Below, piece by piece: positions 1 to 64,000 of a stretch of 64,000 nucleotides of DNA. The position numbers were made by a program, and so were the translations under genes. Every line of letters begins with the position of its first letter. The stretch's first letter is position 1. The notes beneath the pieces were generated by a model, which saw only the letters and a list, made by a program, of their open reading frames with translations, did not search any database and was not told where the DNA came from. Origin of the DNA: an uncultured Bifidobacteriaceae bacterium (GTDB lineage: Bacteria > Bacteroidota > Bacteroidia > Chitinophagales > UBA10324); contig CAYRJA010000002.1 of NCBI GenBank assembly GCA_964424455.1, positions 7,236-71,235 on the forward strand, given 5' to 3'.

Positions 1-195
1 GCGTTTGACTCACTCAGCGGGCTGAGTTTATTTGCAGGGAAAACAGATACCATTATTCAGTCCATCGGGATTAACTATCATTATCGCGCTATCAGCAAAG
101 GAGTGGTGGACACAAGAGATGTGCTGTATTTTTTAAGTCTGATAGTAGTGTTTGTTCTGTTAACTAAAACTTCGATGGAAAGCCGTAAGTGGTAA
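1..195 (+). CDS. gldF: C-terminal fragment of gliding-motility ABC transporter permease (GldF-like); 5' end lies outside the window
   Basis: Frame 1 is open from the window edge to TAA at 193-195. The translated tail ...VVDTRDVLYFLSLIVVFVLLTKTSMESRKW ends in a hydrophobic helix. It stops 1 nt before the gldG-like ORF, matching the conserved gldF-gldG order. Family assigned from memory, not searched. Confidence 0.55.
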   Translation, partial: AFDSLSGLSLFAGKTDTIIQSIGINYHYRAISKGVVDTRDVLYFLSLIVVFVLLTKTSMESRKW

Positions 196-196
196 T

Positions 197-1918
197 ATGA
201 AGACCTCTGTACATAAGAAGAAACCACAAAAACAACAAGCCCTGTTTGGTGTTACAGTATTGATTGCAATAGTGGTGTTGCTGAATGTATTGTCTTCCGC
301 AGTTTTCTACCGTGTTGATTTAACTTCTGATAAGCGTTACACATTATCCGATTCTACCAAACAGATGCTTCGCTCATTGAACGATAAAGTGTTTGTCAAA
401 GTGATGCTTACAGGAAATATGCCTGCTGGATTTAAGCGGCTGAGTACTTCCACCAAAGAATTGCTTAATGATTTTAAAGCGTATGCCGGCTCTAATATCC
501 AGTATGAATTTGAAGATCCGCTTGTAGGAAAATCAAATGAGGAAAAGAACAGGATATACAAAGAGATGAGTGAAAAAGGATTGCAGCCAACTAATGTGCA
601 AAGCGTTGACGGCGATGAATACTCAGAAAAAATAATTATTCCCGGAGCTTTAGTTTATTATCATGGAAGAGAAGTTCCGGTGGATTTATTAGTGAATGAA
701 AAAGGGATAGCATCACAGGAAGCGCTTAACATTTCTGTTTCACAGTTAGAAAATAAATTTGCTTCCGCTATTCAGCAGTTGACTGTAACACGCAAACCTA
801 AAATAACTTTCCTCTATGGGCAGGGAGAATTACAGTCATACTACCTTGCTGACATCCTTCAACCGCTGTTTGATTTTTACGAAGTAGATACTTTAAATCT
901 GTCACATATAGTAAATGTGAAAAATGATGTTAAAGTAATAGTGGTGGCAAAACCTGTTACAGCATTTGATGAAAAAGATAAATTCAAACTGGATCAGTAC
1001 ATCATGCGCGGCGGTAAAATACTATGGCTGCTGGATGCTCTCAATGCCGATATGGATAGCCTAACTCAGAAACCGACGATGCTTGCAGTAGATCTTCCGT
1101 TGAATTTAGAAGACCAATTATTTACTTATGGTGTACGGGTAAATCCTGTATTGCTTCTCGATTTGCAGTGCAATCCGGTTCCGCTGCTCGTTAATAATCC
1201 CGGAGGCAATCAACCTGAGTTCAGATTATTTCCCTGTTACTATTTCCCTGTGCTGGTTCCTGATAGAAATAATATTATCACCAAAAACATAGATGCGGTC
1301 AGCTCTATATTTCCTTCCACTATAGATACTGTAAATGTGGGAGGAGTGAAGAAGACTATTCTTTTACATTCATCTGATTACAGTAAGATTGCTTTTACAC
1401 CCTGGCAAATAGATTTTCGTGAACTGAAAAATAAACCACAGCAGGAAACATTTAACAAGAGGAAACAACCCGTAGCCGTTCTTCTTGAAGGAAGTTTTAC
1501 ATCCGTTTACAGAAACAGATTGGCTCAGGGAATGATTGATATGATGAACGATTCTCTGAAGCAGCCATTTCTTGAACAAAGCAGCACACCATCGAAGATG
1601 ATAGTGATAGCAGATGGAGATATTATAAAGAACGACTTCAGTAAAGGAAAACCTACATCACTCGGCTACTACAAATACACAGGTGAATATTTTAACAACA
1701 AAAATTTTCTGCTCAACTGTATTGATTATCTCTCCGGTCACACGAACCGGATTGAAACACGCTCTAAAACTGTTCAGCTTCGCTTGCTGGATATGCAGAA
1801 GGTGAAGAAAGAAAGACTACAATGGCAATTAATTAACTTGCTATTGCCGGTTGGATTCATCCTTCTTTTTGGATTGATGTTTACTTTTGTCAGAGTGAAA
1901 AAATATTCGGGGCTGTGA
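197..1918 (+). CDS. gldG: gliding-associated ABC transporter auxiliary component GldG
   Basis: 573-aa ORF with an N-terminal TM (ALFGVTVLIAIVVLLNVL) and a C-terminal TM (LINLLLPVGFILLFGLMFTF) around a large periplasmic body. This is the GldG architecture, and it sits directly after the gldF-like tail. Confidence 0.8.
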   Translation: MKTSVHKKKPQKQQALFGVTVLIAIVVLLNVLSSAVFYRVDLTSDKRYTLSDSTKQMLRSLNDKVFVKVMLTGNMPAGFKRLSTSTKELLNDFKAYAGSNIQYEFEDPLVGKSNEEKNRIYKEMSEKGLQPTNVQSVDGDEYSEKIIIPGALVYYHGREVPVDLLVNEKGIASQEALNISVSQLENKFASAIQQLTVTRKPKITFLYGQGELQSYYLADILQPLFDFYEVDTLNLSHIVNVKNDVKVIVVAKPVTAFDEKDKFKLDQYIMRGGKILWLLDALNADMDSLTQKPTMLAVDLPLNLEDQLFTYGVRVNPVLLLDLQCNPVPLLVNNPGGNQPEFRLFPCYYFPVLVPDRNNIITKNIDAVSSIFPSTIDTVNVGGVKKTILLHSSDYSKIAFTPWQIDFRELKNKPQQETFNKRKQPVAVLLEGSFTSVYRNRLAQGMIDMMNDSLKQPFLEQSSTPSKMIVIADGDIIKNDFSKGKPTSLGYYKYTGEYFNNKNFLLNCIDYLSGHTNRIETRSKTVQLRLLDMQKVKKERLQWQLINLLLPVGFILLFGLMFTFVRVKKYSGL

Positions 1919-2910
1919 TTTCAGAAAGAAAATCTTTCATAAATAATATTTTGCATGGTGATGCTTTACAACTCCTCTCGGAAATAAAGAGTAACAGCAT
2001 TGATTTGGTGTTGACCGATCCACCGTATTTTTTGGATAAGATGGATGACGGATGGGATGATAAAAGAGTTTCAAGTAAGAAATATCACCATGTTGTAACA
2101 TCCCTTCCTGCCGGAATGAAGTTCGACAGAGTACAGGGAGAGAATTTTTACAATTGGTACTTCAAAGTTTCACAGGAAATTTTGCGCGTCCTGAAACCGG
2201 GTGGATTCTTTTTTTCCTTTTCAAGCCCTCGTCTGTATCATCGAATGGTTTCTGCGATGGATGATGCGGGGTTTTTGATTCGTGATAGTTTCATCTGGCT
2301 TTACACTCAGAATCAGCCGAAAGCGATGAGCTTAAATCATTTTATTAAAAAGCAGAAAGGAAGTGAAGAAGAAAAGTTAAATCTTCAGAAGAGACTAAGT
2401 GGATGGAAAACACCGCAAATAAAATCCTGCTTTGAACCGATTGCAGTTGCACAGAAAGAAACAGAAGGCACTTTCTTAGAAAATTTTAAAAAGTATCAGA
2501 CGGGCTTGGTTAATACTTCTGTTACAGTCGGAGATGAAATGTTTCCGGCAAATGTTATTTCGACAGATGAAATTAATTCTGTTGTTGACAAATGTTTTCT
2601 CATTGCAAAACCGGACAAGAAGGAGAAAGGTGAATTTAATACGCACCGTACAGTAAAACCGTTAAGCTTATGTGAATACATTATACGGCTAACCACCTTT
2701 TCAGAAGACTCGATAGTTCTCGACCCGTTTGCCGGAAGCGGAACTACATTAGTTGCAGCAAAGAGACTGAACAGAAAATTTATCGGTATGGAAATAAATA
2801 AACAGTATTTAAAGATAATTCAAAAGAGAATCAGCGACATTGCGCCTAAAAGAACTCAGCGTAGCACAAGAGCTAAAATACGCACAATTAAATACAGCAC
2901 CACTCTATAA
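1915..2910 (+). CDS. orphan beta-class DNA methyltransferase (N6-adenine or N4-cytosine)
   Basis: Motif IV LVLTDPPYF lies near the N-terminus and motif I LDPFAGSGTT near the C-terminus, the beta-class order IV then I. The GTG start at 1915 overlaps the gldG TGA (GTGA, 1915-1918). The next in-frame Met falls after DPPY, so the GTG start is required. No endonuclease gene is adjacent. Confidence 0.85.
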   Translation: MISERKSFINNILHGDALQLLSEIKSNSIDLVLTDPPYFLDKMDDGWDDKRVSSKKYHHVVTSLPAGMKFDRVQGENFYNWYFKVSQEILRVLKPGGFFFSFSSPRLYHRMVSAMDDAGFLIRDSFIWLYTQNQPKAMSLNHFIKKQKGSEEEKLNLQKRLSGWKTPQIKSCFEPIAVAQKETEGTFLENFKKYQTGLVNTSVTVGDEMFPANVISTDEINSVVDKCFLIAKPDKKEKGEFNTHRTVKPLSLCEYIIRLTTFSEDSIVLDPFAGSGTTLVAAKRLNRKFIGMEINKQYLKIIQKRISDIAPKRTQRSTRAKIRTIKYSTTL

Positions 2911-2919
2911 AGATCAGTC

Positions 2920-63150: not shown

Positions 63151-63163
63151 ATATTTTTCTCAA

Positions 63164-63553
63164 ATGACACAAGAAGAAAGAAATAGAATTACTAAAGACA
63201 TTCTTGATGCCTCTATAGAAGTACACAGAAACCTGGGACCAGGATTGCTTGAATCTGTTTATGAAGTGTGTCTTTGCAAAGAATTGTTGATGAGGAAAAG
63301 AAATTTCCTTCGACAGGTAGCTCTTCCTGTTGTTTACAAAGAAGAAAGTTTAGATTTAGATTTCAGAATTGATATTCTTGTCGAAGAAGAAATAGTTATA
63401 GAATTAAAAGCTGTTGACGCATTATTACCTGTTCATGAAGCACAAATTTTAACCTATCTAAAACTGTCAGACAAAAGGATAGGACTTCTAATAAACTTTA
63501 ATGTTCCAAAACTTATTGATGGATTTAAACGGATAATCAATGGCTACGATTAA
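63164..63553 (+). CDS. GxxExxY protein (PD-(D/E)xK nuclease-fold family)
   Basis: GPGLLESVY gives the G-x-x-E-x-x-Y signature, with D...E.K-like residues later (DILVEEEIVIELK). 129 aa. Confidence 0.8.
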   Translation: MTQEERNRITKDILDASIEVHRNLGPGLLESVYEVCLCKELLMRKRNFLRQVALPVVYKEESLDLDFRIDILVEEEIVIELKAVDALLPVHEAQILTYLKLSDKRIGLLINFNVPKLIDGFKRIINGYD

Positions 63554-63579
63554 CTCTGTGCCTTTGTGCCTCTGTGGTG
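63554..63579. repeat. right inverted repeat of the GxxExxY cassette
   Basis: CTCTGTGCCTTTGTGCCTCTGTGGTG. Its reverse complement differs from the left repeat at one position. It starts directly after the stop codon. Confidence 0.85.
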
Positions 63580-63606
63580 CTCCCATAAAACATAAAACTT
63601 TAAACT

Positions 63607-64000
63607 ATGTCTATAATTATTGATGTTCATGCCCGACAGATTCTTGATTCACGCGGAAACCCTACAGTGGAAGCAGAAGTAACTACAAGCAATGGAGCGA
63701 TGGGACGCGCTGCTGTACCTTCCGGTGCATCTACCGGCAAGCACGAAGCCGTTGAACTGCGCGACGGCGATAAGAAAAAATACTTGGGTAAAGGTGTTAC
63801 AAAAGCAGTGAAGAATGTAAACAATATTCTTGCTAAAGAATTAGAAGGGTTGCATGTTACCGATCAGGTGATGATTGACAAACTGATGATTGAAATAGAT
63901 AATACGGATAACAAAGAAAACTTAGGAGCTAATGCAATTCTTGCCGTTTCACTTGCCTGCGCACATGCTGCAGCGGAAGAAGTTGGACAGTCGCTTTACC
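63607..64000 (+). CDS. eno: enolase, N-terminal part (runs off the window)
   Basis: From the ATG at 63607: [25 protein letters not shown]...[16 protein letters not shown], the canonical enolase N-terminus. The frame is open to the window end. Not in the ORF track because it has no stop. Confidence 0.9.

Follow-up and report, generated by a model that had tools for sequence, protein, structure and literature searches.

A hyper-iterated asymmetric word in the DNA of an uncultured Bacteroidota clade: a possible self-DNA tag

Introduction

What keeps a seven-base word recurring about once every 640 bases along a bacterial chromosome, in genes and spacers alike? The question is raised by a stretch of 64,000 nucleotides from an uncultured member of the Chitinophagales (assembly GCA_964424455.1, contig CAYRJA010000002.1, positions 7,236 to 71,235; GC 38.9%), the whole of which we call the window, and by the word TGTWACA that is scattered along it. 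We show here that the enrichment of this word acts at the level of DNA, is nearly saturating, is neutral with respect to strand and is restricted to one clade, and that the word has reshaped the proteome of the organisms that carry it.

Hyper-abundant words have repeatedly led to mechanisms: Chi sites to the control of RecBCD, the Pasteurellaceae uptake signal sequences (USS) and their Neisseriaceae counterparts, the DNA uptake sequences (DUS), to sequence-specific uptake of DNA, and the highly iterated palindrome HIP1 of cyanobacteria, although this case is debated, to transformation. Elhai distinguished three classes of such oligomers, namely Chi, uptake sequences and highly iterated palindromes (HIPs) (PMC4390886). 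A first-pass annotation, made from the letters of the window alone, described TGTWACA as a quasi-palindrome extending to CTGTWACAG, named HIP1 and uptake sequences as its nearest analogues and knew of no counterpart in Bacteroidota. These are the right analogues, and in the searchable literature we found no report of the word itself or of an equivalent in this phylum.

Results

An exact search for TGT[AT]ACA over the window returned 100 copies, a density of 1.56 per kb. The annotation had arrived at the same number by eye, with 97 of its 100 coordinates exact and the other three off by 10 (the true starts are 19360, 23018 and 32375, given there as 19370, 23028 and 32385). Its 31 perfect CTGTWACAG sites also agree with the exact count, and its estimate that about 85% of copies have a flanking C or G is matched by the 86 of 100 that carry C at -1 and/or G at +7. 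By raw count TGTWACA is the top 7-mer of the window, above all A/T-rich words, and its extensions are the commonest 8-mers and 9-mers, as had been predicted. An order-2 Markov model leads one to expect 14.3 copies of the 7-mer, 3.7 of each of the two 8-mers (65 and 52 observed) and 0.9 of the palindromic 9-mer (31 observed), so the annotation's rough chance expectations were sound. For the 10-mer [C/G]TGTTACAGT, which occurs 37 times where 0.43 are expected, enrichment is about 86-fold.

The enrichment survives when protein sequence and codon usage are both held constant. Gene calling gave 50 genes (90% of the window is coding), and synonymous codons were permuted within each gene in 300 shuffles. 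The coding sequences (CDS) contain 87 copies of TGTWACA against 16.3 +/- 3.9 after shuffling (maximum 27 in 300 shuffles; z = 18), and 29 copies of CTGTWACAG against 2.1. The 13 copies in spacers (2.0 per kb, as against 1.5 per kb in genes) amount to about 9 times expectation. These shuffles, together with the occurrence of copies in all three frames and in spacers, confirm the annotation's view that the signal resides in the DNA and not in the proteins. Because one-base variants of TGTWACA reach only 0.4-1.9 times expectation, every position of the word is specified, as was also proposed. One of the annotation's own tests did fail, and the cause is technical: A maximal-order Markov model gives a ratio of only 1.17 for the 7-mer, but the 6-mers on which that model is conditioned are already inflated by the word, which makes it uninformative as a null. 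We therefore dropped it as a criterion, leaving the order-2 model and the codon shuffles as the informative nulls. Copies follow one another at Poisson-like spacing (coefficient of variation 0.94; Kolmogorov-Smirnov p = 0.21) and are distributed evenly along genes, with no bias in within-gene position.

Sequence conservation around the copies is confined to positions -1 to +9. Because the flanks carry no information beyond these limits, each copy is a word in its own right and none belongs to a dispersed repeat family, in keeping with the annotation; the copies lack the extended conserved sequence of repetitive extragenic palindromes or miniature inverted-repeat transposable elements, and 87% of them are genic. 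The same flanks overturn the description of the word as a palindrome or quasi-palindrome. With every site turned so that its central base is T, position -1 is C in 52 and G in 35, position +7 is G in 65 and A in 21, and position +8 is T in 52. Position -1 differs from what the mirror image of +7 predicts (C65/T21/G10; chi-square p = 7e-6), and the T at +8 is not matched by an A at -2. Sites that carry the T-centred form on the coding strand show the same pattern as sites that carry it on the non-coding strand, and the pattern recurs in 85 sites from relatives, from which it follows that the selected word is itself asymmetric. It is a word of about 10 bp, [C/G]TGTTACA[G/a]T[W], of which the 31 perfect CTGTWACAG sites are the C...G subset.

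Asymmetric though it is, the word has no preferred strand. The 10-mer occurs 19 times on the plus and 18 times on the minus strand, and the core 57 and 43 times (p = 0.19). The replication-strand skew for which the annotation had proposed a check is absent, as is any block-wise switch of strand across the window, over which GC skew is mostly of one sign. Coding-strand use is likewise balanced, at 39 versus 37, once the stop-constrained frame is excluded. Among one-base variants we saw no depletion specific to transitions, as a repair signature would give (TGTTATA stands at 1.08).

Within genes, 64 copies read nnT-GTW-ACA (Val-Thr), 11 read nTG-TTA-CAn and 12 read TGT-WAC-Ann. The annotation's coding examples (Val-Thr in gldG, Leu-Leu-Gln in uvrA, Cys-Asn and Cys-Tyr, and a copy at 18043 that overlaps a stop codon) all hold. 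Val-Thr dipeptides number 100, of which 73 are spelled GTW-ACA, and in 64 of these 73 the preceding base is T. Of the 130 positions at which the encoded protein is compatible with the word, 87 (67%) are filled, where codon usage would predict 11%. Peptides that permit the word are likewise over-represented: X-Val-Thr is found 93 times, compared with 64 +/- 7 after shuffling of the residues of each protein, and when the clade is set against 71 outgroup loci, all of the dipeptides VT, TV, CN, CY and LQ are elevated (for CN, 1.46 versus 0.68). The pressure has thus altered protein sequences as well as the choice of codons.

The word extends well beyond the window. The closest named neighbours by UvrA, at about 70%, are metagenome-assembled genomes (MAGs) assigned to Chitinophagales, Sphingobacteriales or simply 'Bacteroidota'. 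Nearer relatives were found in public assemblies as contigs whose UvrA is 90, 86 or 83% identical to that of the window, or whose copy of the window's DNA methyltransferase (see below) is 88 or 82% identical. These clade contigs carry the word at 1.05-1.31 copies per kb (codon-shuffle z 7.8-10.5), and 34 kb of relatives' DNA that is non-syntenic with the window has 47 copies against 6.5 expected. The assemblies come independently from NCBI, Logan and JGI, and those of the relatives include samples SRR34578571, SRR14117730 and SRR6032603. Enrichment in four related organisms, including regions with no syntenic counterpart in the window, bears out the suggestion that the signal is not local; the phylum-level scope that the annotation implied is too wide. 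A relative at 71% UvrA identity shows no enrichment (5 copies versus 2.5; z = 1.6), two Chitinophagales MAGs at 70% have no copies at all, and among 80 UvrA loci from other Bacteroidota the highest density is 0.33 per kb and the median observed/expected ratio is 0.6. In the accessible DNA, then, the count is far from chance, the word is not confined to the window and it does not stem from a repeat family, the three outcomes that the annotation had regarded as fatal. We note that uvrA of the 71% relative (L086, 1303-4182) holds four of the five TGTWACA of that locus, two of them at positions shared with the clade, and the remaining 11 kb holds one; either chance or exchange could have produced this.

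Comparison of orthologous DNA aligned at 76-84% identity indicates how copies come and go. Between 57 and 70% of the window's sites, and 80-88% of those of relatives, are shared, as against 16-33% for arbitrary aligned 7-mers. Unshared sites are mostly one or two substitutions away from the word, and the changes include non-synonymous ones, such as that at the LLQ of the window's uvrA, which is aligned with WVK in that of the 90% relative. The alignments thus indicate that copies are born in place by point mutation and then kept. Sites private to the window (17) outnumber those private to relatives (5), a surplus that matches the window's higher density, and the window lineage is still gaining copies. 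Within-species pairs (L081/L082, L089/L090 and L084/L085) differ by 0-1 bases and offer no usable polymorphism.

Dense local groupings of the word in other DNA are a different matter. In IMG/VR, a scan for word triplets that lie close together, a biased way of selecting loci, yielded coding tandem repeats with conserved flanks among the matches listed, and none of the viral loci among those matches has the S...G-T signature. Three of these viral contigs (L102, L197 and L160) reach 3-6 TGTWACA per kb through tandem coding units of G-N-V-T-G and V-T-P-S-N-T, which are probably parts of fibre proteins.

Other Bacteroidota have words of their own. A survey of the 78 + 56 control loci, in which we looked for words that are dispersed and whose flanks are unconserved, brought up two further strong cases. 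In an uncultured Pontibacter MAG (L078, CBINIP010000008.1), we counted 28 copies of AAGTATAA(A) over 22.8 kb, located on both strands and with unconserved flanks; 14 copies of AAGTATAA lie in CDS, in several frames, against 1.8 under codon shuffling (z = 9.8), and intergenic density reaches 3.8 per kb, with some copies in tandem. UvrA relatives of this organism at 78-90% identity do not share the word. In a second lineage, represented by a metagenome contig (L223, JGI Ga0160429_1000009), 22.8 kb contain 33 copies of CCTAGG, a perfect palindrome, and 27 of these lie in CDS, all in the frame nnC-CTA-GGn, against 5.6 +/- 2.2 under codon shuffling. CTAG, a word that is normally avoided, totals 108 at this locus. 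A neighbour whose uvrA is 91% identical to it in nucleotides (L222) has CCTAGG at lower density, 8 copies in 11.6 kb. CCTAGG is a true HIP-like palindrome, and it belongs to a different lineage of Bacteroidota. Hyper-iterated words specific to a lineage thus appear more than once in the phylum and turn over rapidly, and the asymmetric flanks of TGTWACA, together with unrelated words in other lineages, suggest a family of dialects and not a lone oddity.

Two further words came to light in Mucilaginibacter MAGs. ACTGGTGG, a weaker case, occurs 8 times in 22.8 kb of one uncultured MAG (L019), always in coding-strand orientation (codon-shuffle z = 5.8); it is one base from the Chi site of E. coli (GCTGGTGG) and is for that reason a candidate Chi site. 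AAAGAAGCAT is found 15-18 times per 21 kb in two others (L052 and L051), inside a conserved intergenic element, ATTTTA...GGTAAAAGAAGCAT, and its appearance is that of a promoter or leader-type motif, not of a dispersed word.

We turn to the restriction-modification (R-M) genes of the clade. The METHYLTRANSFERASE lead is an orphan beta-class DNA methyltransferase (MTase; DPPY motif, CcrM/YhdJ-like) at 1915..2910 (+), between gldG and its DUF4340 partner; it is given as context and is not shown to be part of the word system. In the 82% relative and in unrelated genomes, a 236-aa CxxC...CxxC (HNH-like) protein lies directly upstream of this MTase (L089 9322-10999, L091 9283-11023, and 9298-11032 in both L214 and L217). 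This partner is 76-78% identical across Bacteroidota, Thermodesulfovibrionales and deltaproteobacterial MAGs; it is kept in the 82% relative and gone from the window and the 88% relative. The window's MTase is the M-half remnant of a mobile two-gene R-M cassette, with the 236-aa protein presumably its nuclease.

The target of the cassette was sought by analysis of palindrome avoidance. In genomes that have the nuclease gene, TGTACA is found 2 times with 19.1 expected, and in those that have only the MTase, 29 times with 43.8 expected; in the clade organism that keeps the nuclease (L089 and L081 together) the figures are 2 and 15.9. This organism was compared with the window, L088 and L083 together, L091, L092, L214 and L217. 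Two further nuclease-bearing genomes provide no corroboration (1 versus 3.3 and 3 versus 4.2). TGTACA is tentatively the cassette's target. It equals the word minus its central base and is not nested in it, and nuclease-bearing genomes show no avoidance of GTWAC.

A second R-M system is a Type III-like island at 11791..16271 (+), made up of a Mod of 548 aa (PF01555), a Res of 851 aa (ResIII/DEAD) and a helix-turn-helix controller. The island coincides with the longest word-free stretch of the window, has 2 copies against 8 expected (p = 0.013), and is likely recently acquired DNA. Just upstream of folB, where the window has nothing comparable, genes of an Eco57I-type methyltransferase and of a HincII-family endonuclease are inserted in the 90% relative (L088, 15642-18011), an indication that R-M content turns over quickly within the clade.

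Discussion

If two thirds of the compatible positions are filled and the composition of peptides has shifted to provide more of them, some molecule must read the word. Ordinary causes do not suffice. A preference for Val-Thr codons or codon pairs would agree with the predominance of nnT-GTW-ACA among genic copies, and a dispersed repeat family or an assembly artefact might be proposed for the rest, but these explanations are refuted by the codon shuffles (16 versus 87), by the excess of intergenic copies, by the use of three frames and both orientations with a T before GTW-ACA in 64 of 73 cases, by the unconserved flanks, and by the agreement of NCBI, Logan and JGI assemblies and the existence of relatives of similar GC without the word. 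We regard the chance that any of them is right as negligible.

The explanation that we favor, with an estimated chance somewhat short of even, is that [C/G]TGTTACA[G/a]T could be a lineage-specific tag of self DNA, analogous to USS, DUS or HIP1, that is read during natural transformation. A sequence-reading protein of the transformation pathway would favor word-bearing DNA, either at binding and uptake or at the subsequent recombination. Fragments with the word would then enter and recombine into the chromosome more often than fragments without it, and copies that arise by point mutation would spread and persist through molecular drive, possibly together with selection for the uptake of conspecific DNA. 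A monomeric or single-strand reader would be expected to recognise an asymmetric motif of about 10 bp, such as the present one. Both the reader (transformation machinery) and the driving force (a bias in uptake or recombination) are what we infer. Retention by selection and retention by transmission bias are indistinguishable from these data.

The analogy is closest to USS and DUS. Those are also short asymmetric words of 9-12 bp that occur about once per kb, equally on both strands; they are mostly genic, lie in tolerated frames, reshape peptide content and arise by point mutation, and a co-evolution of the proteome of the same kind has been described for USS. They exist as lineage-specific dialects, and occasional inverted pairs serve as terminator stems. 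DNA that has been acquired is poor in them, as is the Type III-like island here. The features of the present word that correspond (density, asymmetry, strand neutrality, frames and clade restriction) are all read from sequence, and one inverted pair is a candidate terminator. It differs in that it belongs to another phylum, whose sole characterised competence system, that of Riemerella, has a pilus-independent machinery, without a type IV pilus (PMC8459023), and in that its core is self-complementary (TGT-W-ACA). Riemerella sets a precedent in the phylum: its species are naturally competent (PMC8459023), and R. columbina prefers its own DNA (PMC7965970).

HIP1 (GCGATCGC) provides the second point of comparison. 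It too is hyper-abundant in genes and spacers beyond what codon usage can explain, its sites are conserved above background, related lineages have another word or none, and a clade-conserved orphan MTase of R-M origin accompanies it. But HIP1 and its reported extensions are perfectly palindromic (PMC4390886), whereas the present word has asymmetric flanks, an odd length and a W at its center. Because its flanks break the symmetry that every reported HIP1 extension retains, membership among the HIPs fails on their defining property. Moreover, HIP1 contains the targets of its associated MTases, whereas TGTACA, the tentative target here, is not nested in the word. Kilobase-scale periodicity is a hallmark of HIP1; the local spacing of the present word, over 64 kb, is Poisson-like. 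[quoted passage not shown]

Several observations weigh against a tag read in transformation. No ComEC, DprA, ComF or pilin, and none of the Riemerella-specific DUF5689, PF13620 or DUF1343 proteins, was found in the window or in some 70 kb of relatives' DNA. The AT tracts that extend around USS are absent from the word sites. There is only one clear terminator-like word pair (29001/29028), far fewer than the terminators that contain DUS, and close pairs are not in excess (4 gaps below 50 bp, about 8 expected). As many as 74% of genic copies lie in one reading frame, which means that the sequence space accessible to the word is narrow. The Type III-like island does not have a lower occupancy of compatible positions (2/4 versus 85/126; Fisher p = 0.6), so its shortage of copies reflects a shortage of permissive peptides. 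Finally, high positional retention is equally expected under direct selection on a chromosomal function, as has been argued for HIP1 on the same grounds (PMC5861425).

This last point leads to an alternative that we consider unlikely but by no means trivial, namely, the classical reading of HIP1, in which the word is the binding site of an abundant nucleoid-associated or chromosome-organising protein, or a maintenance signal, whose density is directly selected. Retention well above that of background 7-mers, as for HIP1 (PMC5861425), is what such a site would show, as are an even density with Poisson-like spacing in genes and spacers and the lack of orientation bias; and TGT/ACA half-sites around a central base resemble a protein-binding core. 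Asymmetric flanks would be unexpected for a symmetric dimer, however, no candidate protein was found, and a site every 640 bp that alters proteins is without known precedent among nucleoid proteins. A different role in chromosome biology, as a protective self mark, a Chi-like recombination hotspot or a segregation signal of the KOPS/AIMS kind (FtsK-orienting polar or architecture-imparting sequences), seems to us very improbable. These signals are over-represented, non-palindromic oligomers of core genome DNA, much like the asymmetric 8-10-mer in core genes here, and HIP1 has been described as partly Chi-like (10.1101/2024.09.10.611283). But they are strand-skewed and much sparser, and the absence of skew in the present word, despite a GC skew mostly of one sign and with coding-strand use balanced once the stop-constrained frame is set aside, excludes signals of the Chi and KOPS type. 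Its density is also several-fold above that of known Chi sites.

It is also quite unlikely, in our estimation, that the word is a functionless by-product of methylation or repair, whether through a HIP-type link to the orphan MTase or through a correction process, like very-short-patch repair, that turns near-matches into the word. Such a process would fit with the conservation of the DPPY MTase at the gldG locus in three of three clade organisms sampled, with a slight overall depletion of one-off variants (about 0.9 times expectation), with the resemblance of the word to TGTACA, and with the methylation dependence of the effect of HIP1 on transformation (10.1101/2024.09.10.611283). As a sufficient cause, the MTase had to be rejected: Copies 74-76% identical to it are present in four unrelated genomes (L091, L092, L214 and L217), three of them with the nuclease partner, and there the word is not enriched (0.10-0.24 per kb). 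No transition-specific neighbor is depleted, TGTACA does not lie within the word, avoidance of GTWAC is absent from nuclease-bearing genomes, and flank asymmetry is a poor fit to the palindromic site of an MTase. Known repair biases such as that of Dcm/Vsr enrich their products well below the 7- to 86-fold seen here. The remaining probability we leave to something not yet conceived.

A broader proposition, which we consider rather doubtful at present, is that Bacteroidota possess their own system of clade-specific self-DNA tags ([C/G]TGTTACAGT in this clade, AAGTATAA in one Pontibacter MAG, CCTAGG in a Hymenobacteraceae-like metagenome lineage), to be read by the phylum's pilus-independent machinery of DNA uptake or recombination. 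If true, these would be the first dialects of uptake sequences outside Proteobacteria and, arguably, the HIP1 of cyanobacteria, and they would account for the preference of Riemerella columbina for its own DNA, the determinant of which is unidentified; a k-mer search in that species gave only A-rich low-complexity words (PMC7965970). The word supplies a precise bait for finding its receptor as well as a marker by which this uncultured clade can be binned and tracked, and it allows drives like those of uptake sequences to be tested beyond two proteobacterial families.

Positions of the copies and other features of the window

The copies located by the exact search are given here in order, with strand, sequence and, where genic, peptide context. 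The three in gldG lie at 250..256 (+, GTGTTACAGTA, G-V-T), 784..790 (-, GTGTTACAGTC, T-V-T) and 955..961 (+, CTGTTACAGCA, P-V-T), and the orphan MTase gene has two, at 2094..2100 (-, ATGTTACAACA, V-V-T) and 2520..2526 (+, CTGTTACAGTC, S-V-T). They are followed in the DUF4340 gene by 3296..3302 (+, CTGTTACAATC, L-L-Q), 3561..3567 (-, GTGTTACAGTA, T-V-T) and 3777..3783 (+, CTGTTACAGTT, P-V-T), and by an intergenic copy at 4688..4694 (-, TTGTTACAAGT). The DUF7948/CHU_C gene contains 6529..6535 (+, CTGTTACAATA, T-V-T) and 8392..8398 (+, ATGTTACACTC, N-V-T), and porP/sprF contains 8454..8460 (+, CTGTTACAGTT, A-V-T) and 8721..8727 (+, GTGTTACAAAA, G-V-T). Single copies occur in a hypothetical gene of 133 aa at 9528..9534 (-, GTGTTACAGGA, C-N-T), in folB at 10005..10011 (+, TTGTTACAATA, I-V-T), in an acyl-CoA dehydrogenase gene at 11540..11546 (+, ATGTTACAGGG, D-V-T), in the Type III res gene at 15111..15117 (+, ATGTTACATCT, C-Y-I), in a hypothetical gene of 141 aa at 16505..16511 (-, CTGTTACAAAA, F-V-T) and in the gene of an fn3 protein at 17279..17285 (-, CTGTTACAGTA, T-V-T). 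The copy at 18008..18014 (+, CTGTTACAGAA) is intergenic, between convergent genes, and that at 18043..18049 (+, CTGTTACACCT) overlaps the stop codon of a minus-strand metallo-beta-lactamase gene.

In rodA we find 19360..19366 (+, CTGTTACAAAG, F-V-T) and 19468..19474 (+, GTGTTACAGTT, T-V-T); in the gene of penicillin-binding protein 2, 20385..20391 (-, GTGTTACAGTT, G-V-T), 20649..20655 (-, CTGTTACAGTT, S-V-T), 20843..20849 (-, CTGTTACAATT, C-Y-N), 21686..21692 (+, GTGTTACAGAG, C-N-T) and 21813..21819 (+, GTGTTACAGGT, P-V-T); and in mreC, 22815..22821 (-, CTGTTACATAA, L-L-H) and 23018..23024 (-, ATGTTACAGAC, N-V-T). Beyond an intergenic copy at 24696..24702 (-, CTGTTACATCA), the GSDH gene reads as Val-Thr all of 25169..25175 (-, TTGTTACAGTT, T-V-T), 25469..25475 (+, CTGTTACAACC, T-V-T), 25808..25814 (+, CTGTTACAGGA, A-V-T), 26309..26315 (-, GTGTTACAGTT, T-V-T), 26474..26480 (-, CTGTTACAATT, I-V-T) and 26762..26768 (+, CTGTTACAGTA, T-V-T). 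A hypothetical gene of 156 aa holds 28634..28640 (-, CTGTTACAGTT, T-V-T) and 28967..28973 (+, GTGTTACAGAG, S-V-T).

Next to it, in a spacer, 29001..29007 (-, CTGTTACACAT) and 29028..29034 (+, CTGTTACACAT) form the left and right arms of a hairpin at 28998..29037 (no strand assigned), the stem of which is the inverted word pair GTGTAACAG...CTGTTACAC. It has T-rich runs on both sides, lies between convergent genes and folds at -20.9 kcal/mol (z = -6.65; none of 200 shuffles folds as well), which makes it a candidate bidirectional terminator.

Copies continue in the mbnP-like gene at 29220..29226 (+, GTGTTACAGTA, T-V-T), 29553..29559 (-, CTGTTACAGGA, P-V-T) and 29781..29787 (-, CTGTTACAGTT, S-V-T), and in a hypothetical gene of 365 aa at 30288..30294 (-, GTGTTACACTT, G-V-T) and 30866..30872 (+, CTGTTACAGCT, C-N-R). 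Intergenic copies at 31054..31060 (-, GTGTTACAGTT) and 31577..31583 (-, GTGTTACAGTA) lie on either side of one in a hypothetical gene of 127 aa, 31270..31276 (-, GTGTTACATGA, C-Y-M). The gene of a 646-aa substrate of the type IX secretion system has 31746..31752 (+, CTGTTACAGTT, T-V-T) and 32375..32381 (-, CTGTTACAAAT, C-Y-K). An intergenic copy at 33622..33628 (-, GTGTTACAGTA) precedes that in the endonuclease III gene, 34681..34687 (-, CTGTTACAGGA, L-L-Q). The copies of uvrA differ in how widely they are shared: 37164..37170 (+, CTGTTACAGAA, L-L-Q) is also found in the 90, 86 and 83% relatives, 37420..37426 (+, CTGTTACAGAA) is found only in the window lineage, via a non-synonymous change, and 39243..39249 (+, CTGTTACAGTC, L-L-Q) is common to five of five orthologues, including that of the 71% relative; the others are 37021..37027 (+, CTGTTACAGGA, P-V-T), 38286..38292 (+, ATGTTACAGGC, M-L-Q) and 38539..38545 (-, CTGTTACAACC, V-V-T).

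In the amidase gene are 39912..39918 (+, GTGTTACACAA, V-L-H), 40486..40492 (-, CTGTTACAGCA, A-V-T) and 40596..40602 (+, GTGTTACAGTT, V-L-Q), and in the LysM/SLT gene 42867..42873 (+, GTGTTACAGTG, G-V-T). Four more, at 44038..44044 (+, CTGTTACAATT, P-V-T), 44646..44652 (+, GTGTTACAGTT, V-L-Q), 45307..45313 (-, GTGTTACAGTT, T-V-T) and 45457..45463 (+, ATGTTACAGAT, D-V-T), fall in a single 842-aa open reading frame (43085-45613) that has a Mur-ligase middle domain and a complete alanine racemase (N- and C-terminal domains) and appears to be a fusion of the murF-alr type. Downstream are an intergenic copy at 45626..45632 (+, TTGTTACACCA), two in the DUF6029 gene at 46073..46079 (-, CTGTTACAGTT, T-V-T) and 46592..46598 (+, GTGTTACAGGA, G-V-T), two in omp28 at 47349..47355 (-, CTGTTACAGTT, T-V-T) and 48171..48177 (-, CTGTTACAAAT, F-V-T), and three in pheT at 48926..48932 (+, GTGTTACAGTT, S-V-T), 49175..49181 (+, TTGTTACACTT, F-V-T) and 49283..49289 (+, GTGTTACAGAT, G-V-T).

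A hypothetical gene of 107 aa contains 51057..51063 (+, CTGTTACAGTA, C-N-R), and one of 243 aa contains 51677..51683 (-, CTGTTACAGTG, P-V-T) and 52021..52027 (+, GTGTTACAGAC, C-N-T), with intergenic copies at 51329..51335 (-, CTGTTACAGCT) and 52106..52112 (-, CTGTTACAAAA). The M1 peptidase gene has an inverted pair, 52459..52465 (+, CTGTTACAGTT, T-V-T) and 52492..52498 (-, CTGTTACAAAT, S-V-T), as well as 53094..53100 (+, GTGTTACAGCC, C-N-T) and 53446..53452 (+, GTGTTACAGTA, T-V-T). Thereafter come an intergenic copy at 54110..54116 (+, GTGTTACAGAT), one each in nifU at 54767..54773 (+, CTGTTACAAAC, F-V-T) and corA at 55070..55076 (+, ATGTTACAGTT, H-V-T), and two in recX at 56155..56161 (+, GTGTTACAGTT, T-V-T) and 56411..56417 (-, CTGTTACAGTG, L-L-Q). 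The DUF5723 gene carries 56835..56841 (-, GTGTTACACTG, C-Y-T), 57260..57266 (-, CTGTTACAGGG, L-L-Q) and 57451..57457 (+, CTGTTACAGAG, S-V-T), and a hypothetical gene of 713 aa carries 57935..57941 (+, CTGTTACAGTT, C-N-S), 58554..58560 (+, GTGTTACAGTT, T-V-T), 58725..58731 (+, CTGTTACAATT, I-V-T) and 58944..58950 (-, GTGTTACAGTA, G-V-T). The last are in a beta-CASP gene at 60573..60579 (-, CTGTTACAGTT, T-V-T) and 61047..61053 (+, GTGTTACACTA, S-V-T), in carA at 62881..62887 (-, CTGTTACAATA, I-V-T) and in the enolase gene at 63795..63801 (+, GTGTTACAAAA, G-V-T).

Scans of the window against Rfam and for tRNAs gave no matches. The beta-CASP gene (60490-61950) encodes a metallo-beta-lactamase of 486 aa whose best NCBIfam match is the type VII CRISPR-associated Cas14, at 423 bits against a cutoff of 800; the protein also matches archaeal aCPSF1, and neither a CRISPR array nor further cas genes were seen in its neighbourhood. 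Several short palindromes are very strongly avoided in the window and clade loci. Observed/expected ratios are 0.04 for CTAG, 0.10 for GGCC, 0.18 for ACGT and 0.27 for GATC among 4-mers, and 0.11 for GGSCC, 0.18 for AGSCT and 0.32 for CCWGG among 5-mers; the 6-mers CAGCTG, GTATAC and CATATG are likewise avoided. Avoidance of this strength implies heavy restriction pressure, alongside the hyper-enrichment of one near-palindromic word.

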